DNA of 64,000 nucleotides, taken from Coriobacteriales bacterium. Lineage in GTDB: Bacteria; Actinomycetota; Coriobacteriia; Coriobacteriales; UBA8131. The position numbers and the translations under genes were made by a program. The stretch covers positions 32,068 to 96,067 of the forward strand of contig JAISLY010000025.1 in NCBI GenBank assembly GCA_031277035.1, in the 5' to 3' direction. Below are positions 3,407 to 36,286 of the stretch, in pieces. Below the pieces are notes generated by a model, which saw nothing but the letters and a program-made list of their open reading frames with translations, searched no databases and was not told the origin of the DNA. The first letter of the stretch is position 1, and every line of letters starts with the position of its first letter.

Positions 3407-3455
3407 GGCGACAGAAGGTGACAAGGGGGACGGTTCCATTTTGTCATCTTTTTGC
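3407..3455. repeat. REP-like repeat, inverted copy, left flank of the Y1 transposase gene
   Basis: ggcgacagaaggtgacaagggggacggttccattttgtcatctttttgc is the near-exact reverse complement of the repeat at 4371..4429. Confidence 0.75.
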
Positions 3456-3522: not shown

Positions 3523-4293
3523 CTACCGGCGGCATTTCGCGATGATGCCGCGCGAGATGCCGGTCGCTCTCTCTATCTGGCGGATGGAAAAACCCTTGTC
3601 CCGCAGCAGACAAAGCAGGCGGTCGCGCTCCTTTTTGTCGGCAATCCCTACGAGTGCCACAGGCGCGGTGTCGCCAAGGGCTGCCTTGATTCCCGATAAC
3701 ACCTCGGCATCCGTCCTCAGCTTGCCTTCGGAGGGCATGCGCTCCGCACCGTCGAACACCTGGTGAAACGCACGAAACTCCGCAATCGCCTTCTTGTGGT
3801 CATCGGAGAACATGTCCAGCACCAGGCTCGTCTCCAAAAGCGCGTCGTTGCCCTTGAGGTAGCCGCGGTAGCTGCTCCAGCGGTATGCTCTGGCGTCCTT
3901 CGCGATGCCCGCCACCACGGGGTTTTGGTGGATATAGCGCACCACGGCAAGCAGGTAACGATCCCTGTCAACAGATTCGCTCTTGTAGCGGTTTGCCACC
4001 AGCGCGCCGCTGCGGGCGTATTTACGATTAAACCATCCGGCGTACTGGACAAGAACCCTGTGCATGAGTGCGCTGACGTTGCCAGGCGTGCCCTCGTGTA
4101 CCAGCAGGTGGACGTGGTTTCCCATCAGGCAGTAGGCATAGACGTCAAAGGGGACGGCGTCTTTTGTTGCAAAAAGCAGGTCGAGGAACTTCCTGTAGTC
4201 CGCATCCTCCTCAAACAGGTGACAGTGGTTCACCCCACGAAAGACGATATGGTAGATACCTGACGCACTGATCTGACGGGCGACCCTGGTCAT
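3523..4293 (-). CDS. Y1 (IS200/IS605-type, RAYT-like) transposase with C-terminal HTH-like tail
   Basis: IYHIVFRGVNHCHLF and YCLMGNHVHLLV (HUH-type motif), and RYIHQNP (catalytic Tyr region). The gene is flanked by inverted REP-like repeats. Confidence 0.8.
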   Translation of the reverse strand: MTRVARQISASGIYHIVFRGVNHCHLFEEDADYRKFLDLLFATKDAVPFDVYAYCLMGNHVHLLVHEGTPGNVSALMHRVLVQYAGWFNRKYARSGALVANRYKSESVDRDRYLLAVVRYIHQNPVVAGIAKDARAYRWSSYRGYLKGNDALLETSLVLDMFSDDHKKAIAEFRAFHQVFDGAERMPSEGKLRTDAEVLSGIKAALGDTAPVALVGIADKKERDRLLCLLRDKGFSIRQIERATGISRGIIAKCRR

Positions 4294-4363: not shown

Positions 4364-4429
4364 CGATAGCGCAAAAGTTGACAAAATGGAACCGTCCCCT
4401 TTGTCACCTTATGTCACCCCTTGTCAGCT
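4364..4429. repeat. REP-containing 66-bp repeat, copy 1 (right flank of the transposase, left flank of the TA cassette)
   Basis: cgatagcgcaaaagttgacaaaatggaaccgtcccctttgtcaccttatgtcaccccttgtcagct. It recurs at 5223..5289 with 2 mismatches. Confidence 0.85.
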
Positions 4430-4439
4430 ATCCACATCC

Positions 4440-4763
4440 TTACTCATCGCTGGTGGGGCGGTGGTGCTTCAGGATGCCGATTATGTTGCGTGAGCCGTGG
4501 AGGATGCGGTAGATAAAAACGGTTTGCTGCTCGTCGTCGACCTGATAGAAAATCAGGTAATCGTCAACGACCGCCCGGCGGTATCTGGCGTCATGTTCAT
4601 ATGGCGGGGCACCGTAAGGGTTCTCGGCAAGGCTTTTGCACCGTGCCTTCAGTGCATCGATGATTTTCTTTTGGTAGCTGTCTGAGAAACGCCTGTTGAA
4701 CTCCTGTATTTCTGTCACATCGGCCAATGCGACCTCAAGATAGCGGAGTTTGTAGGGTTCCAC
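4440..4763 (-). CDS. Type II toxin, RelE/ParE family
   Basis: 107 aa ending YLIFYQVDDEQQTVFIYRILHGSRN. Lies 7 nt downstream of the antitoxin gene. Confidence 0.8.
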   Translation of the reverse strand: MEPYKLRYLEVALADVTEIQEFNRRFSDSYQKKIIDALKARCKSLAENPYGAPPYEHDARYRRAVVDDYLIFYQVDDEQQTVFIYRILHGSRNIIGILKHHRPTSDE

Positions 4764-4769
4764 ACGGCC

Positions 4770-5039
4770 TCACGCACCAGTTGAAGCCCAGAACTCATCG
4801 TGTGAGAGCCACTTCGCATCCGGGCCCTCGGCAAGCCGCTCGCCCTCGGCGAGGCGCTCCCGCACGTACCGGAGGTGGAGGTACTCCTCATACCCCTTGA
4901 AGTCCTCAAAGTTGATGAGCACCGCCTGACCCTTGCCCCTGTTGGTGATAATCACGCTGTCGCGCTCCTCAAGTCGTTTGACGACGGCGGCATAGTTGTT
5001 CCTGAGTTCGCGGGAGGGGATGACTTCGGCGTTCATCAT
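4770..5039 (-). CDS. Type II antitoxin, Phd/YefM family
   Basis: MMNAEVIPSRELRNNYAAVVKRLEERDSVIITNRGKGQAVLINFEDF. AAAGGAG RBS upstream of ATG 5039. The longer track ORF starting at 5141 is unlikely. Confidence 0.8.
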   Translation of the reverse strand: MMNAEVIPSRELRNNYAAVVKRLEERDSVIITNRGKGQAVLINFEDFKGYEEYLHLRYVRERLAEGERLAEGPDAKWLSHDEFWASTGA

Positions 5040-5222
5040 GGGGCGCTCCTTTTGTTGCAAGGGCATCGCTGAGGTTTGCGTGACAATCCGACAGCAGTGT
5101 ATCACAGTTTGCCTACATGGGTGAACAGGGTCTGCCCGCATGAGCCCGCATGAGCTAAACGCAGCTTGACTGGCTGCGGCCCAACTGCTGCAAGTTTACA
5201 TCGAAATCACAGGTCGGGTAGC

Positions 5223-5289
5223 CGATACCGCAAAAGTTGACAAAATGGAACCGTCCCCTTTGTCACCTTATGTCACCCTTTGTCAGCTT
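5223..5289. repeat. REP-containing 66-bp repeat, copy 2
   Basis: Direct repeat of 4364..4429. It overlaps the stop codon of the adhesin gene. Confidence 0.85.
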
Positions 5290-28772: not shown

Positions 28773-29699
28773 TTACTCCAGCGCGGCGCGTATGGGGGAA
28801 AGCCAGGCAGAAAGATCGGCGGCAGCCGTGGCGGGCGAAGCGCCGATGCGTTGCACGATGGCGCTGCCGATGATCACCCCGTCGCACAGCGCAGCCAGCT
28901 CACGGGCCTGCTTGGGCGTATGCACGCCAAACCCAACGGCAATCGGCACGTCACTGACCGCCCGCACCGCCGCGATAATCGGCCTGAGATCGGTCGTGAT
29001 ACTCTCGCGCACGCCCGTGACGCCCAGCGAGGAGACCAGATAGAGAAAGCCGCGCGCCTCGCGGGCTATTCTGGCAACCCGCGCTTCGGAGGTCGGCGCG
29101 AGCATGGAGATCAGCTCAAGGCCATGCGCACGCACAAAGGGCTCCATCTCCCCCTTCTCCTCAAAGGGCAGATCCGGGACGATAATGCCATCGACCCCCG
29201 CCTGCTCACAGTCTGCAAAAAAGGCTTCGTAGCCGTAGTGAAAGACCGGGTTGAGATAGGTCATGAAGACCAGGGGCAGCTGGGTACGCGCACGCAGACG
29301 CCGCGCCAGCGCGATGCAGTCGCCTATCGTTGTGCCCGATGCCAGCGCGCGCAGACTGGCCTGCTGGATGATAGGCCCCTCGGCAATGGGGTCGGAGAAG
29401 GGGATGCCAATCTCGATAAGATCGACGCCGGCCTTCTCCAGAGCGGCTACATATTCCTCGGTACGCGCAAGCGAGGGGTCGCCCGCCGTGAGAAAGGCAA
29501 TGAGCGCCTTGTGCTCGGCAAAGGCGCCCGCTATTCGAGAAGATGCTGGTGTGACGGGGGCGCCGGGGGCGCCTGGTGTGCCCGTTGCGCCTGGTGTGCC
29601 TGGTGTGCCTGGTGTGCCTGGTGTGTCCGTTGCGCCTGGGGCGTCTGGTGTGCCTGGTGCGCCTGGTGTGCCTGGTGTGCCGTTTGCCACACTACTCAT
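28773..29699 (-). CDS. trpA: Tryptophan synthase alpha chain with a roughly 45-aa G/T/P-rich N-terminal extension
   Basis: [27 protein letters not shown] and [13 protein letters not shown] 29699 overlaps the trpB stop. Confidence 0.9.
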
Positions 29700-30876
29700 G
29701 AATGCTCCTTCCCCGATAGCGGGCAATCGCCGCCACATCCTTATCACCGCGTCCGCTCAGACAGATGATGACGCTCGTATCCTTGGGCAGACGAGGGACA
29801 AGCGTCAGCGCGTGGGCAAGCGCGTGGGCACTCTCGATGGCGCAGATGATGCCCTCGCTGTGCGCCAGATATTCAAAGGCACACACCGCCTCCTCGTCAG
29901 TGATTGGCACGTACTCGGCTCGGCCGCTTTGGTGCAGCCAGGCGTGTTCGGGGCCGATGCCCGGATAGTCGAGCCCAGCGGAGATGGAGTAAACCGGGGC
30001 AATCTGGCCGTCCGCATCCTGACAGAAGTAGGACTTCATGCCATGAAAGACCCCCTCTGCGCCCGTTGCGATGGTGGCGGCGTGCTGCCCTGTCTCGATG
30101 CCCCGCCCGGCCGCTTCACAGCCGATGAGACGCACGTCCGCATCGGGGATGAAGTGATAAAAGCTGCCGATGGCGTTGCTCCCACCGCCGACGCAGGCGA
30201 GCACCGCGGCGGGCAGGCAGCCTTCGCACGCAAGAATCTGCGCACGCGCCTCGGCGCTGATGACCGCCTGAAAGTCGCGCACCATCGTCGGAAAGGGATG
30301 CGGCCCCATCACCGATCCAAGCACGTAATGCGTATCGTCCACACGGCTTACCCATTCGCGCATGGCTTCGTTCACCGCGTCCTTCAGGGTTGCGGTGCCG
30401 CTGGTCACCGTGTGGACCTTCGCGCCGAGCAGCTCCATGCGATAGACGTTGAGCGCCTGGCGCTCGGTGTCCTCACGACCCATGAAGACCTCACACTCAA
30501 GGCCGAGCAGAGCCGCCGCCGTTGCCGCCGCAACACCGTGCTGACCAGCGCCCGTCTCGGCGATGACGCGTGTCTTGTTGCGTCGTTTTGCGAGCAGGGC
30601 CTGTCCCAGCACGTTGTTAATCTTATGCGAGCCCGTGTGGTTGAGGTCCTCACGTTTGAGATACACCTTCGCGCCACCGAGCTCACGCGTCATTTTCTCG
30701 GCAAAATAAAGCAGCGAGGGCCGGTTGGCATAGGTGTTGAACAGGGTGGTGAGCTCTGCCTGGAAGTCGGGGTCGCGCTTTGACGCCTCATAGGCGGCCT
30801 CCAGCGCATACAGTTCGCTCATCAGGGTCTCAGGGATATACTGGCCCCCAAAGTCTCCGAAGCGTCCTTTTGTCAT
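29692..30876 (-). CDS. trpB: Tryptophan synthase beta chain
   Basis: [29 protein letters not shown] and GGGSNAIG. Confidence 0.95.
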
Positions 30877-31643
30877 GCCTGCCTCACTCTCTTTACCAGC
30901 TCGTTTATCTTCTGCGAATCCTTCACGCCGTCCGTCTCGGCCCCGCTGCTCACGTCGATGCAGTACGGCTTCAGTTCCAGCGCCTCCTCGATGTTTCCAA
31001 GCCCGATGCCACCCGCAAGAAAATAGGGGCGTCGGATGCCCGCAAGACAGCTCCAGTCAAAAGTTCGCCCGCTCCCCGGTTCGCGATAGTCGAACAGCGG
31101 GTAGTCGACCTCGTCGGCAATGTGGAGAAGGTCAGTTGACAAAGGGGACGGTTGAGTTGACAAAGGGGACGGTTGCGTCTGAGGGCGGCTGCGAGTTGAC
31201 AAAGGGGACGGTTCCAAATTGTCAACTTTTTCCAGATGCTTTGCGACTCCATGACCGCACTCAAAAAGTTGACAATTTGGAACCGTCCCCTTTGTCAACT
31301 CAACCGCCACGGCTCGGATGATGGTCAGGTTCGCTCCGCAGCGCTGCCTGAGTTCGCCTATCTGCTCAGGCTGCCAGGCGCCGTGTAGCTGCGCCGCCGC
31401 AAAGAGTCCCCGGTCGTAGAGTTCGGCGATGCGCTCAGGAGCCTCCTCAACAAAGACGCCCACCGACACGATGCGCTCGTCAAGCTGTGCCCGCAGCGAA
31501 GCGGCGTGCTCGGGCGTCACGCGGCGTGTGCTGGGGGCAAAGACAAAGCCCACGTAGTCTGGCAAGGCCCGGTTGACCGCCGCGACATCCGCCTCGCGAA
31601 AAATCCCGCATATCTTGATGCGCGTCGTATGCGTCGTGCTCAT
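30873..31643 (-). CDS. trpF: Phosphoribosylanthranilate isomerase, carrying an in-frame REP-like insertion
   Basis: [24 protein letters not shown] and [11 protein letters not shown]. Operon position between trpC and trpB. Residues [17 protein letters not shown]...PSPLSTD come from the repeat element. Confidence 0.85.
31135..31300. mobile_element. REP/MITE-like palindromic element inside trpF
   Basis: Three gttgacaaaggggacgg motifs, then the long inverted arms gttgacaaaggggacggttccaaattgtcaacttttt / aaaaagttgacaatttggaaccgtcccctttgtcaac around a 31-bp core. It has the same core motif as the repeats flanking the Y1 transposase. Confidence 0.8.
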
Positions 31644-32542
31644 CGGCTGGCCTCACGCATCTGGGCAAGCAGGGCGTCGCGGTTCTTTGAGCGCATCAGC
31701 GTCTCACCAATGAGCACCGCGTCAACTCCGGCGCGGGCGAGCAGCGCCACATCATCAGCGGTGCGGATGCCGCTCTCCGCGACATAGAGCACATCGCCTG
31801 GCACCACCTCGCGCAGCCTGACACTCAGCGACAGGTCGACTTCAAAGCTGTGAAGGTCGCGATTGTTCACGCCCACAATGCCCGCACCCGCAGCAAGCGC
31901 ACGCTCAAGCTCCTCCCTGGTGTGCGCCTCCACAAGCGCGTCCATGCCCAGGCTGTGGGCGCAGGCGATAAAGGCCGCCAGCTGCTCGTCGCTGAGCAGA
32001 GCAACGATGAGCAGCACCGCCGCCGCCCCGAGCGAGGCCGCCTCGTGTATCTGGTACGCGTCGATGATGAAGTCCTTGCGCAGCGCCGGTATGCGCAGCG
32101 CCGCCGCAATTTCGGCGAGATAGCGCGGTGCACCCTGAAAGAAGTTGGGCTCGGTGAGCACACTGATGGCGGCAGCGCCTGCCTCCTCGTAGGAGCGGGC
32201 GATGCCGAGATGGTCAAAGTCCTCGGCGATAATGCCCTTGGATGGCGATGCCTTCTTTACCTCGCAGATGAAGGACAGCTCCGGCGCGGCAAGAGCCGCG
32301 GCAAAAGGCCGCAAAGCAGGCGGTTGAGTTGACAAAGGGGACGGTTGCGTCTGAGGGCGGCTGCGAGTTGACAAAGGGGACGGGTACAAATTGTCAACTT
32401 TTTGAGTGCGGTCATGGAGTCGCAAAGCATCTGGAAAAAGTTGACAATTTGGAACCGTCCCCTTTGTCAACTCGCCCGCCTGCTTTGCGGCCTCAACACG
32501 ACGATAGGTATCGGCTACTATCTTCTCCAGGATGCTGTGCAT
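31640..32542 (-). CDS. trpC: Indole-3-glycerol-phosphate synthase, carrying an in-frame REP-like insertion near the N-terminus
   Basis: FICEVKKASPSKGII, ISVLTEPNFFQG, LRKDFIID and GVNNRDL. Residues [17 protein letters not shown]...PSPLSTQP come from the repeat element. Confidence 0.85.
   Translation of the reverse strand: MHSILEKIVADTYRRVEAAKQAGELTKGTVPNCQLFPDALRLHDRTQKVDNLYPSPLSTRSRPQTQPSPLSTQPPALRPFAAALAAPELSFICEVKKASPSKGIIAEDFDHLGIARSYEEAGAAAISVLTEPNFFQGAPRYLAEIAAALRIPALRKDFIIDAYQIHEAASLGAAAVLLIVALLSDEQLAAFIACAHSLGMDALVEAHTREELERALAAGAGIVGVNNRDLHSFEVDLSLSVRLREVVPGDVLYVAESGIRTADDVALLARAGVDAVLIGETLMRSKNRDALLAQMREASR
32321..32471. mobile_element. REP/MITE-like palindromic element inside trpC
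   Basis: Near-identical to 31135..31300 except for one fewer leading motif and an inverted 31-bp core. Confidence 0.8.
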
Positions 32543-32557
32543 GAACCTGCTCCGTCC

Positions 32558-33565
32558 TCACTCGTTTGACAGTGCGATAAAGCGCTCGAGCTGCGCCAGG
32601 GCAGCCCCGCTGTCCAGTTGCTCGGCGGCGATTGCGGCTGCCTCCATCAGACTCAACTCCGGCCGGGCAACAAAGATGGCCGCTGCCGAGTTCATCACCA
32701 CGGCGTTGCGCTTTGCACCCTGCTCACCGCTCAGGATAGCGCGGGTGATGGCGGCGTTCTCCTCGGGTGTTCCCCCCACCAACTCCGATTTGGCACAGCG
32801 CGCAAAGCCAAAATCCTCTGGGTGAATATCGTAACTCTTAAAGCGTCCATCGCGCACCTCGCACACGCTCGTCGCGGCGCTCATCGAAAGTTCATCCAGA
32901 CCATCCTGCCCGTAGACGACCAGCGCGTCGCGCACCCCAAGCTTACTGAGCACCTGCGCAAGCGGCTCAACCAAATCCTCCTCGTAGACGCCAAGCAACT
33001 CACGGTTCGCGCCGGCCGGGTTTACCAGGGGCCCAAGGATGTTAAAGATTGTGCGGATGCCAAGTTCGCGACGCACGGGCGCAACATACTTCATGGCGAT
33101 GTGATAGTTCTGCGCGAAAAGGAAGCAGAGTTTGATGGAGCGCAGCAGCTCCAGGCTTTTCTCCGGAGACACCGTGATGTCCACGCCGAGGGCCTCCAGC
33201 ACGTCCGCTGCGCCGGAAAGCGAGGTCGCGGCGCGATTGCCGTGTTTGGCAACCGGGATGCCCGCCGCGCTGATAACGAGGGCCGAGGTTGTGGAGATGT
33301 TAAAGGAGTGCGCCTCATCACCACCGGTGCCAACAATCTCAAGCACATCCATGTCATGCAGCAGACGGATACAATGCGAGCGCATGCCCGCCGCCGAGCC
33401 GGTTATCTCGTCGATGGTCTCGCCTTTGACCGCCATCGCTGTCAGATAGGCCGCCATCTGGATGTCGCTTGCCTCACCGCTCATGATCTCGTCCATCACC
33501 TGCTCAGCCAGGTCGTAGCCGATGTCCTCGCGGTTTATCGCCTTTCTCAACGCCTCGGTTATCAT
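32558..33565 (-). CDS. trpD: Anthranilate phosphoribosyltransferase
   Basis: VGTGGDEAHSFNISTTSALV, KHGNRAATS and FNILGPLVNPA. Confidence 0.9.
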   Translation of the reverse strand: MITEALRKAINREDIGYDLAEQVMDEIMSGEASDIQMAAYLTAMAVKGETIDEITGSAAGMRSHCIRLLHDMDVLEIVGTGGDEAHSFNISTTSALVISAAGIPVAKHGNRAATSLSGAADVLEALGVDITVSPEKSLELLRSIKLCFLFAQNYHIAMKYVAPVRRELGIRTIFNILGPLVNPAGANRELLGVYEEDLVEPLAQVLSKLGVRDALVVYGQDGLDELSMSAATSVCEVRDGRFKSYDIHPEDFGFARCAKSELVGGTPEENAAITRAILSGEQGAKRNAVVMNSAAAIFVARPELSLMEAAAIAAEQLDSGAALAQLERFIALSNE

Positions 33566-34173
33566 TGCTGACCTCCCTGTTCGCTTGCTCCTGAAACCTC
33601 TGTAAGGCTCAGGAAGTTGCCCATTATCTTCTTTCCCTGTGGGGTGAGTATCGATTCAGGATGAAACTGCAGGCCAAAGACCGCAAAACTGCGATGCTCA
33701 ACGGCCATCACCTCGCCGGTGGCCGTTTGAGCGGTAACGCGCAGCTCGTGGGGTATGGTCGCGGGGTCGGCCACCAGGGAGTGGTAGCGTGCGCCCTCCA
33801 GCTGCCCCTGTGGGCTCAGGCCCGCAAAGAGTCGTGCGTCTGGCTCGAGCAGCATGGTCGAGGCCTTACCGTGCATCAGGCGCTCGGCGTAGACAATCCG
33901 TGCGCCAAAGGCCTGGCAGATGGCCTGATGTCCAAGGCATACCCCGAGCAGGGCAATGCGTCCGGAGAAGGCCCTGATGACCTCGGGGCACACACCCGCG
34001 TCCTCCGGACGCCCCGGGCCGGGTGAGAGAATGATATGCGTGGGCGCAAGCGCGTCAATCTCCTCCAGCCCTATCGCATCGTTTCGCACCACGCGGATGT
34101 CTGGCTCAAAGGTGCCCAGCATCTGGTAGAGGTTATAGGTAAAGCTGTCGTAGTTGTCAATGATGAGAATCAC
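33562..34173 (-). CDS. trpG: Anthranilate synthase component II (glutamine amidotransferase)
   Basis: ILIIDNYDSFTYNLYQ, GVCLGHQAI and QFHPES. The GTG start overlaps the trpE stop (GTGA). Confidence 0.9.
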   Translation of the reverse strand: MILIIDNYDSFTYNLYQMLGTFEPDIRVVRNDAIGLEEIDALAPTHIILSPGPGRPEDAGVCPEVIRAFSGRIALLGVCLGHQAICQAFGARIVYAERLMHGKASTMLLEPDARLFAGLSPQGQLEGARYHSLVADPATIPHELRVTAQTATGEVMAVEHRSFAVFGLQFHPESILTPQGKKIMGNFLSLTEVSGASEQGGQQ

Positions 34174-35912
34174 GCGGCACCGCCCTTCGCGCCCGTGCCC
34201 ACTCCCGCCGCGCCCTTCGCGCCACTCTCGCCGACCGCACCAGCGCCCGCACCAGCGCCCGCGCCTGCGGTCGCCACTCCCGCCGCGCCCTTCGCGCCCG
34301 CGCCCGTGCCCACTCCCGCCACACCCTTCGCGCCACTCTCGCCGACCGCACCAGCGCCCGGCACATCCTCCGCACCATCTTCAAGAGCCGCGAGCACCGC
34401 GGCCATCTTATCGCGACATTCCTGATATTCGCGTGCCGGCACGCTGTCGGCCACAATACCGGCACCGCTGCGTATGAAGAGGCGGCCCTCCTTCTTAAAG
34501 GCGAGGCGGATGGCGATGCAGGTGTCGAGGTTGCCGTTAAAGGCCAGGTAGCCAACCGCACCACCGTAAACGCCGCGCTTGCTGCCCTCAAGTTCGTTGA
34601 TAATCTCGCAGGCGCGCAGCTTGGGGGCACCGGAAAGCGTACCCGCCGGGAGAATCGCATCGATGACCTCGCTCGGCGAAACCTCGGGGCGCAGGGCGCC
34701 GCGCACGGTCGAGCCGATGTGCATGACGTGCGAGAAGCGCAGCACCGTGCGATACTCCTCAAGCTCCACACTGCCAAAACGCGCGACCTTGCCCACATCG
34801 TTACGGCCCAGATCAACGAGCATGTTGTGCTCGGCGAGCTCCTTCTCATCAGCGAGAAGCTCAGCTTCAAGAGCCGCGTCCTCTTCAGGCGTCGTGCCAC
34901 GGGGGCGAGTGCCCGCCAGAGGGTAGGTAAAAACATCGCCGTCGATGACCTTCACGAGTGTCTCGGGCGACGCACCGGCCAGCTCGATGTCATCGCTGGC
35001 GAAGTAGAAGAGATACGGCGAGGGGTTGATGCGCCGCAGCCTCTCGTAGGTGCCAAAGAGGCTGCCCGTGGCCGGAGCGGAAAGACGGTTTGAGAGCACG
35101 ACCTGGAATATATCACCCTCGTGGATGTAGTGTTTTGCGCGTTGGACCATACGAGCATAGCGAGCCTCGTCAAACAACGCTTCAAAGGGGCCCTCCCGGC
35201 ACAGGGGGGGAAAGTCGGCCTTCTTTCCTGTGGCAAGGAGCCGGGCAAGGGAGCGGAGCTCATGGGTGGCCTTCTCGTAATTCTCCTCAAACGTGTCGGT
35301 GCGCACCGTGGCGATGAGCAGGATGCGACGTTGATGGTGGTCAAAGGCTATAACCTTGTCAAAGAGCATCAGGTCAAAGTCCTTAAAGCCCTCCTCGTCC
35401 GCATCGGCAAAGCGCAGGCTTGGTTCACAATAGCTGAGATAGTCGTAGGAAAAGTAGCCCACCAGCCCGCCGGTAAAGGGGGGCAGTTCGGTCAGCCGAG
35501 GGCAGCGATACTCCTCGAGGATGCCGTCGATAAAGCTGCCCGGCTCACGGGTGGCAACTTCGAACTGCGTGCCGTTTTTGATCTGTAGACGCCCGTTCTG
35601 ACAGCTGATTTCGGCTGTCGGGTCAAAGCCGATAAAGGTGTAGCGCCCCCATCGGTCGGGGTCCTCCCGGCTCTCCAGAATAAAGCAGTGCCTGCTCAGA
35701 CGCTTGAGGACTGCGAATAGTTCGAGCGGATCGCGGCCCTGGCCCGGAAGAATCGCGTAGACGGGCATTGAGGCAAAGCCGCGAGCCAGAAGCTTTGCGG
35801 TCGCAAGGCTTGGGTGGCAGGTGACGCTTCGGTGCTCCGCAGACGGCGAGGCGTCTGGTGCCGCAGCTGATGCGGCAGGGAGCCGTGGGTCTTGTTGTGC
35901 GGTCTGATCCAT
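34170..35912 (-). CDS. trpE: Anthranilate synthase component I with a roughly 65-aa G/A-rich C-terminal extension
   Basis: GGLVGYFSYD, LAGTRPRG, MHIGSTV, GTLSGAPK and GGAVGY. GAAGGGGAAG RBS before ATG 35912. The longer track ORF to 36011 would overlap the leader terminator. Confidence 0.9.
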   Translation of the reverse strand: MDQTAQQDPRLPAASAAAPDASPSAEHRSVTCHPSLATAKLLARGFASMPVYAILPGQGRDPLELFAVLKRLSRHCFILESREDPDRWGRYTFIGFDPTAEISCQNGRLQIKNGTQFEVATREPGSFIDGILEEYRCPRLTELPPFTGGLVGYFSYDYLSYCEPSLRFADADEEGFKDFDLMLFDKVIAFDHHQRRILLIATVRTDTFEENYEKATHELRSLARLLATGKKADFPPLCREGPFEALFDEARYARMVQRAKHYIHEGDIFQVVLSNRLSAPATGSLFGTYERLRRINPSPYLFYFASDDIELAGASPETLVKVIDGDVFTYPLAGTRPRGTTPEEDAALEAELLADEKELAEHNMLVDLGRNDVGKVARFGSVELEEYRTVLRFSHVMHIGSTVRGALRPEVSPSEVIDAILPAGTLSGAPKLRACEIINELEGSKRGVYGGAVGYLAFNGNLDTCIAIRLAFKKEGRLFIRSGAGIVADSVPAREYQECRDKMAAVLAALEDGAEDVPGAGAVGESGAKGVAGVGTGAGAKGAAGVATAGAGAGAGAGAVGESGAKGAAGVGTGAKGGAA

Positions 35913-35924
35913 GCGTTTCTTCCC

Positions 35925-36286
35925 CTTCTCGGACTCTCTTTTGGGCCAGAGGGGATAAAAAACCGCCCCTGGCGTCTTTGCCAAGGACGGATGGAAAATC
36001 CGCGGTGCCACCTTGATTCGGGCATCTTACGCCCGCTCTTCATGGAGTACGGTCATACTCCCGACCGGTAACGTCGATCCTACGTCGTCAGCTACTCGTT
36101 TGTTTTCTTCGACACGTGCCCCGGCAATCACGTCACCAGCTTGGGTCGAAACTGAAAACTCCCTTTCACCACGCCCTCCGTGGCCCATTTAGCAGACTGC
36201 ATACTGCCGGATTCTCAACACCCCGGCTCTCTGTAAGCGCATCTCCTGCTTTTATTCCCACATCAACGGTTTAAGATATTCGGTTA
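35925..36286 (-). ncRNA. T-box leader (probable tRNA-Trp specifier) upstream of trpE
   Basis: Minus strand has the Stem I elements CAGAGAGCCGGGGUGUUGAGAAUCCGGC, a candidate specifier region CUAAAUGGGCC containing UGG, the T-box sequence AAUCAAGGUGGCACCGCGG (36000-36018), and then the terminator. Confidence 0.7.
35957..35990 (-). terminator. Intrinsic terminator of the trp leader
   Basis: Minus-strand RNA reads CCGUCCUUGG-CAAAGACG-CCAGGGGCGG-UUUUUU, a 10-bp stem with two G-U pairs. It overlaps the region 3' of the T-box sequence. Confidence 0.7.

Follow-up and report, generated by a model that had tools for sequence, protein, structure and literature searches.

Within a 64,000-nt stretch of DNA (positions 32068-96067 of the 112-kb contig C2, hereafter the window) from the metagenome-assembled genome (MAG) of an uncultured Coriobacteriales member, we identified two copies of a hairpin-forming mobile repeat, one inside trpF and one inside trpC, whose central segments are exact reverse complements of one another. 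The element is a REPIN, consisting of two inverted repetitive extragenic palindromic (REP) hairpins, here termed arms, around a spacer of 31-33 nt, here termed the core. The trpF core (31232-31262) and the trpC core (32404-32434), both 31 nt, match at 31/31 positions as reverse complements and at 8/31 in direct register, which corroborates the exact inversion reported in an initial annotation of the window; an inverted match of this extent between shared arms is not due to chance. The source genome comprises 1.82 Mb in 62 contigs (60% G+C, completeness 72.7%, contamination 4.5%), and its nearest named relative by TrpC is a Coriobacteriales MAG. In window coordinates, the two copies are composed as follows.

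31135-31194, plus strand: outer part of the trpF copy, consisting of half-REP unit U1 (31135-31151), TTGA, unit U2 (31156-31172) and the 22-nt linker TTGCGTCTGAGGGCGGCTGCGA (31173-31194), which provides a polarity marker
31193-31231, plus strand: left REP arm of the trpF copy, a hairpin GTTGACAA-16 nt-TTGTCAAC followed by T5
31232-31262, plus strand: core of the trpF copy, CCAGATGCTTTGCGACTCCATGACCGCACTC, 31 nt; the coding strand is the minus strand and encodes 11 residues
31263-31301, plus strand: right REP arm of the trpF copy, 100% complementary to the left arm
32307-32323, plus strand: segment X of the trpC copy, GGCCGCAAAGCAGGCGG, at the position of U1 and the exact reverse complement of X' (32476-32492)
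32328-32344 and 32345-32366, plus strand: U2 and 22-nt linker of the trpC copy, oriented as in trpF
32367-32403, plus strand: left REP arm of the trpC copy, with two mismatches to its partner arm (GGGTAC for GGTTCC)
32404-32434, plus strand: core of the trpC copy, 31 nt, the exact reverse complement of the trpF core; the coding strand is the minus strand and encodes 11 residues
32435-32471, plus strand: right REP arm of the trpC copy
32476-32492, plus strand: X', largely native trpC sequence, whose minus strand encodes (E)AAKQAG

Inverted arms flank the core in both copies, as had been proposed, and are perfect over 39 nt around the 31-nt spacer in trpF and 95% complementary over 41 nt in trpC (32363-32403 / 32435-32475), where both mismatches fall in the left arm. 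The two copies align ungapped over 165 nt (31135-31299 vs 32307-32471), with nine differences outside the core. Linker and outer unit have the same side and strand in the two copies; to the left of each, the plus strand carries the 20-mer GCGTCTGAGGGCGGCTGCGA (31175-31194 and 32347-32366), which is found nowhere else in the genome at up to two mismatches, consistent with the co-oriented left portion described in the initial annotation. The trpF core, similarly, has no further match in the genome at up to six mismatches. Given that core and linker are each confined to these two copies in the genome, sequence comparison indicates that the trpF and trpC copies are sisters derived from one asymmetric ancestor. 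Since the one-sided, unique linker points the same way in both copies and the two cores point in opposite directions, a flip of the core, and not of the whole element, is the most parsimonious reading of this arrangement.

The initial annotation had missed both the identity of the element as a REPIN and its cognate REP-associated tyrosine transposase (RAYT) gene in the same window; the identification follows from this gene and from the genome-wide distribution of the element. The arm sequence GTTGACAAAGGGGACGGTTCCAAATTGTCAACTTTTT and its complement occur approximately 40 times genome-wide, building 18 full arm-core-arm units, beyond which partial copies are found at contig ends. The arms are nearly invariant (0-2 mismatches) and each folds on its own as a small hairpin, while at least four dissimilar families can be distinguished among the cores, which measure 31-33 nt. 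On both sides of many copies there are additional 34-bp units of half-REP plus linker, with linkers that vary among copies and are mirrored inside each copy. Substitutions in the arms and outer linkers are also mostly mirrored inside each copy, as would be expected from hairpin-templated synthesis. Single-stranded DNA folds of two copies gave -48 and -44 kcal/mol (z approximately -15 and -13; -48.2 kcal/mol for the copy with 39-nt arms), and the RNA fold of the trpC element gave -114 kcal/mol. Matches to microRNA precursor hairpins in Rfam were sub-threshold only (e.g. 46.7 bits against a gathering score of 99) and were discarded as spurious, being of the kind that any long hairpin yields. The RAYT locus of the window is organized as follows.

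3417-3453, plus strand: REP to the left of the RAYT gene, GGTGACAAGGGGGACGGTTCCATTTTGTCATCTTTTT
3523-4293, minus strand: cognate RAYT, a Y1/HUH transposase of 256 aa (Pfam Y1_Tnp, PF01797; E 2e-12)
4372-4408, plus strand: REP to the right of the RAYT gene, inverted relative to the left REP
5231-5267, plus strand: third REP copy near the RAYT gene

Because conserved arms enclose variable cores in 18 copies, and the same REPs lie inverted around the Y1_Tnp gene, the trpF and trpC elements are assigned to the REPIN/RAYT class; they would represent the non-autonomous partner of this RAYT, which is predicted to mobilise them. A sequence search of the PDB with the RAYT returned no match. A second RAYT (Y1_Tnp, 250 aa; G000:C37:550-1460) was identified outside the window; the REP on its flanks, GGACACAAAGGGGACGTTCTCTTTTGTGTCC, is similar in design but distinct, and is doubled on one side. 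The two Y1_Tnp genes thus each have their own REP, i.e. one RAYT per REP family, with REP types unmixed in doublets. Di Nocera et al. (2013; PMC3733652) describe a tetranucleotide, GTAG or CGTC, that is conserved at one foot of REP stems; when these criteria were applied informally, GTAG was absent from the REP, and CGTC was present (as CCGTCC) not at the foot of the 8-bp REP hairpin but within its 16-nt loop.

Further features were observed around these repeats. Right beside the RAYT gene, in the interval 4364-5289, two direct copies of a REP-containing repeat (4372-4408 and 5231-5267) enclose a minus-strand ParE toxin / Phd-YefM antitoxin pair (4440-4763 and 4770-5141). Outside the window, contig C2 ends (G000:C2:112388-112687) in a REPIN whose palindrome continues for 100 nt or more to either side into apparently unique flanking sequence, as far as the contig end, with a 59/60 match in the 60 nt beyond the REPIN arms; it represents either a genuine long palindrome or a path that folded back during assembly. 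Also, T5 follows every REP hairpin on that hairpin's own strand, such that each REPIN bears two convergent terminator-like motifs (31195-31236 and 31258-31299; 32367-32408 and 32430-32471). In trpF and trpC these motifs sit inside the trp operon transcript, where a 39-bp stem would constitute a strong mRNA structure in coding sequence.

A separate line of evidence on mechanism is provided by segment X of the trpC copy. X occupies the place held by U1 in the trpF copy and differs from U1 at 7/17 positions, with every one of the seven substitutions bringing X into perfect reverse complementarity with X' on the other side of the element. The AAKQ encoded in X' is conserved in relatives, which indicates that its AAKQ codons are native to trpC. 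Clustered changes that turn a quasipalindrome into a perfect one are a classical signature of template switching, and the sequence pattern accordingly marks X as a quasipalindrome-correction footprint for which X' was the template. Given that the changes in X both cluster and perfect the palindrome with X', template switching has acted on the trpC element, which lends support to the class of mechanism first proposed for the inversion (recombination between inverted arms, or hairpin-mediated template switching). A single switch generating both the core flip and the conversion of X was considered and rejected, because it would have deleted the linker and outer unit, both of which are still present; the conversion of X is therefore independent of the core flip.

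We regard it as probable that an asymmetric REPIN variant was copied between trpF and trpC and that its loop was inverted in one of the copies, the likeliest cause being an ordinary template-switch error of replication rather than a programmed switch. An asymmetric REPIN, with one-sided half-REP units, the 22-nt linker and the unique 31-nt core, would have been copied between surface loops encoded by the neighbouring trpF and trpC genes, and during this copying or later the loop between the perfect arms would have inverted in one copy. In such an event, the nascent strand would copy one arm, re-anneal to an identical copy of that arm, located on the opposite strand, in the sister duplex or in the nearby sister copy (in inverted register), copy 31 nt from that other strand, and switch back within the second arm. 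The sister copy, in inverted register 1.2 kb away, may itself have served as the template. RecA-type exchange between the inverted arms could yield the same product. We infer both that the flip took place in situ and which enzymology was at work, and for the latter a replication template switch seems most likely; inter-strand template switching has been found to invert loops, including those of bacterial rRNA hairpins (Monttinen and Loytynoja 2022; PMC8794818). Two enzymatic candidates were judged unlikely from what is expected of their mechanisms: a conventional invertase, for which a 31-bp segment would be too short to form a synapse, and cross-strand joining by the RAYT, as crosswise joining by a Y1 enzyme would produce fold-back strands and not an inversion.

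Several considerations weigh against a flip in situ. The event is deduced from two paralogous copies only, and the closest relatives carry no inserts, leaving no orthologous locus for comparison. Furthermore, the arm-core-arm unit is symmetric, so that insertions in opposite orientation followed by homogenisation of the outer parts would look identical. The distinction originally drawn between a core flip and a whole-element flip consequently holds as the most parsimonious reading, on account of the retained linker polarity, while leaving room for this other history, in which two arm-core-arm units were inserted in opposite orientation and the outer unit and linker were acquired once and spread by gene conversion between elements 1.2 kb apart, or in which a symmetric master with two linkers lost one of them on the same side twice. 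We consider such a history possible but not likely. Because arm-core-arm is perfectly palindromic save for the core, the orientation of an insertion would be visible in the core alone; other REPIN copies bear symmetric outer units, and the proximity and near identity of the trpF and trpC copies favour conversion. Moreover, core families A and B are found in both plus-strand orientations genome-wide (5:3 and 4:3, respectively). A survey of orientation ratios of this kind had been suggested in the initial annotation as a check on the flip; the counts could be obtained, but they are uninformative for that purpose because the other REPIN copies are fully symmetric, outer units included. Against opposite insertions, at least three events would be needed (two insertions plus conversion across heterology, or two parallel one-sided losses) compared with one flip. 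No trace of a linker is seen to the right of either copy, where native trpF or trpC sequence resumes 2-4 nt from the arm, and the assembled genome contains no symmetric or other copy bearing this core or linker.

A flip in situ might alternatively be frequent and reversible in the living population, with the assembly showing the majority state at each locus; the element would then be a recoding intragenic inverton, either enzyme-independent or helped by the RAYT. The perfect 39-bp arms would be an efficient substrate for flipping, and intragenic recoding invertons down to 57 bp have been reported (10.1101/2023.03.11.532203). In addition, a fold-back path at the contig C2 end palindrome, at k=119, would require reads of both core orientations; however, this palindrome carries a mismatch, and a real palindrome explains the contig end equally well. 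Judging from known systems, the 31-bp segment is also too short for a conventional invertase synapse, and the recoded residues lie in a loop predicted to be disordered (predicted local distance difference test score, pLDDT, below 50), with no selectable phenotype apparent. On balance, ongoing flipping appears improbable. We view as similarly doubtful its broader form, in which REPIN spacers generally flip often and reversibly through their perfect REP arms, spontaneously or with help from the RAYT, the trpF, trpC and thrC REPINs act as enzyme-independent recoding invertons, and flips together with template-switch corrections are a main source of spacer diversity and arm symmetry among REPINs. 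Finally, the inversion could be an artefact of assembly or binning, in which the hairpin loop was traversed the wrong way at one locus. The MAG is fragmented (62 contigs, 72.7% complete, 4.5% contamination) and numerous contigs break in REPIN repeats. Conversely, the two loci are internal to a contig of 112 kb and their flanking genes are intact, and contig ends overlap by exactly 119 nt, from which we take the final assembly k to be 119. As k is thus longer than the arm-core-arm (109 bp), any k-mer crossing the element holds the whole core plus bases of the flank or linker, and single 119-mers fix the orientation of the core relative to its flanks. An artefact is thus very unlikely.

In both trpF and trpC, an intact open reading frame (ORF) contains the entire invertible segment together with its inverted repeats. 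As initially annotated, the two core orientations encode different, stop-free peptides in TrpF and TrpC; the reading frame is kept automatically on inversion because the length is unchanged. In all, three REPIN copies reside in frame inside genes (trpF, trpC and thrC), in variable loops without counterpart in relatives. The third (C21:27798-27904; 33-nt core) lies outside the window in a threonine synthase gene (G000:C21:26636-28477, minus strand; ...FKDMALQ...), and is translated in the other entry frame relative to the trpF and trpC copies. Few frames per element strand are open because GTTGACA contains TGA: a 31-nt core leaves only frame 0 open, a 32-nt core only frame 2, and a 33-nt core frames 0 and 2. 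The stop-free state in both orientations had been put forward as potentially meaningful, an expectation that did not hold. For random 31-mers of this composition the probability that the reverse orientation is open given an open forward orientation is approximately 0.55, and most extragenic REPIN cores are likewise open both ways in a permissible frame; two-way openness is therefore no evidence of selection or design.

Protein alignments place the inserts in length-variable segments, in TrpF the one that follows strand beta5 and in TrpC the one that separates the two N-terminal helices. In the predicted structure of TrpC, the barrel has pLDDT values above 90 and insert residues 28-73 have values below 50; the family-invariant residues are all present. 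On this model the 11 recoded residues would fall in a disordered loop, and no functional effect is expected. Both host genes belong to a trp operon on the minus strand, arranged as follows.

28773-29747, minus strand: trpA
29692-30876, minus strand: trpB
30873-31643, minus strand: trpF (phosphoribosylanthranilate isomerase), ORF intact, with a REPIN-encoded insert of ~56 residues in the loop after strand beta5
31640-32542, minus strand: trpC (indole-3-glycerol phosphate synthase), ORF intact, with a REPIN-encoded insert at residues ~23-78 between N-terminal helices
32558-33565, minus strand: trpD
33562-34173, minus strand: trpG
34170-36011, minus strand: trpE

In genomes of the same family (G022, G008, G004, G018 and others), trpF and trpC lack the inserts, and DNA matches stop at the element borders. 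The native sequence at both insertion sites resembles the end of an element unit, reading ...GGCGGTTGA|GTTGAC in trpF and ...GGCGGGCGA|GTTGAC in trpC (31118-31134, 31300-31310; 32472-32500), and the homologous site in G008 reads ACGGTCGA. This likeness hints at insertion through microhomology or at preferred target sites. We also observed, at the corresponding position of the trpF loop in G022 (L093:2287-2336), a small hairpin-like repeat, GGGTGTCAAGG...CCCCTGACACCCGTCCCCCTGACACCC, which may be a remnant of the element or an unrelated small palindrome. Elsewhere in the operon, low-complexity tandem peptide repeats are appended to the N-terminus of TrpA (GTPGAPG-type; 29560-29700, the 5' end of trpA) and to the C-terminus of TrpE (GAGAVGESGAKG-type; 34170-34400, the 3' end of trpE).

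Beyond this genome, related REPINs were found in a few other genera of the same family (including locus L111). Searches of a genome contig collection and a metagenome contig collection gave no match in either, both for the exact 31-mer core and for the arm-gap-arm pattern with exact arms. A comparison of the REPIN-encoded TrpF peptide with 5.8 billion proteins returned the query itself as the sole match, and a look-up of the exact TrpD sequence returned no record.

Taken together, these findings represent a real but modest new instance of known phenomena, the flip belonging to a known mutational class. Nothing indicates a function, and as it stands the flip is best seen as a neutral one-off event without evident functional effect. 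Its value is that of a clean natural case in which a 31-nt hairpin loop is inverted within a bacterial mobile repeat that bears its own polarity marker and, close by, a footprint of quasipalindrome correction. The case suggests that replication template switching helps to shape REPINs, with respect to the perfect symmetry of their arms, the variability of their spacers and the extension of palindromes into adjacent DNA. If flipping were ongoing, it would also constitute a recombinase-free route to intragenic recoding.

Among known systems, the closest parallels are those of the REPIN/RAYT type, to which the TnpA-REP/BIME (bacterial interspersed mosaic element) system of Escherichia coli also belongs. 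The element described here matches their defining anatomy (Bertels and Rainey 2011; PMC3116915 and PMC3337134): a long hairpin formed by two inverted REPs and the short, poorly conserved spacer between them, tens of copies in the genome, a single Y1 transposase gene with these REPs on either side, REP units grouped into higher-order clusters, and diversity of spacer sequence among copies. It differs from the best-studied systems, which are proteobacterial, in being hosted by an uncultured Coriobacteriales member. Furthermore, three of its copies are intragenic and translated in frame, whereas REPs are extragenic by name. Spacer diversity is described in the same work (PMC3116915; PMC3337134), but no inversion of a spacer relative to an outside marker.

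The inversion itself resembles those seen at hairpin loops, where template switching replaces a loop by its reverse complement. Minute inversions, for example, are known at the hairpins of chloroplast genomes. As in these cases and in rRNA (PMC6824564; PMC8794818), a perfect stem encloses a loop that has become its exact reverse complement with its length kept, and quasipalindrome 'corrections' are found nearby. The loops inverted in rRNA are mostly of 4-8 nt (PMC8794818), compared with a 31-nt loop between 39-nt arms here, and the present event differs further in affecting a mobile repeat within protein-coding sequence, where it recodes 11 residues. In this last respect it is comparable to intragenic recoding invertons (Chanin et al.; 10.1101/2023.03.11.532203), in which the repeats also lie wholly in an ORF and a short peptide is recoded with the frame unbroken. 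Those invertons are defined by the coexistence of both orientations in reads and are presumed to be invertase-driven, whereas the trpF and trpC copies represent fixed alternative states at two paralogous loci, with no invertase implicated.

A further analogy, to the residence of these elements in genes, is found in an unrelated repeat family and host. Rickettsia palindromic elements (RPEs), reportedly described by Ogata et al. in 2000, are said to be palindromic selfish repeats that lie in frame in protein genes. To our knowledge, RPEs have no known cognate transposase, and loop inversion between their copies has not been described. Similar to RPEs (reviewed in PMC10969869), the trpF and trpC REPINs are in-frame palindromic insertions in conserved enzyme genes, at variable sites that are predicted to be surface-exposed, and would be tolerated as an extra peptide with the fold intact. 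REPINs, although normally extragenic, can thus persist in frame in housekeeping biosynthetic genes, as RPEs do.

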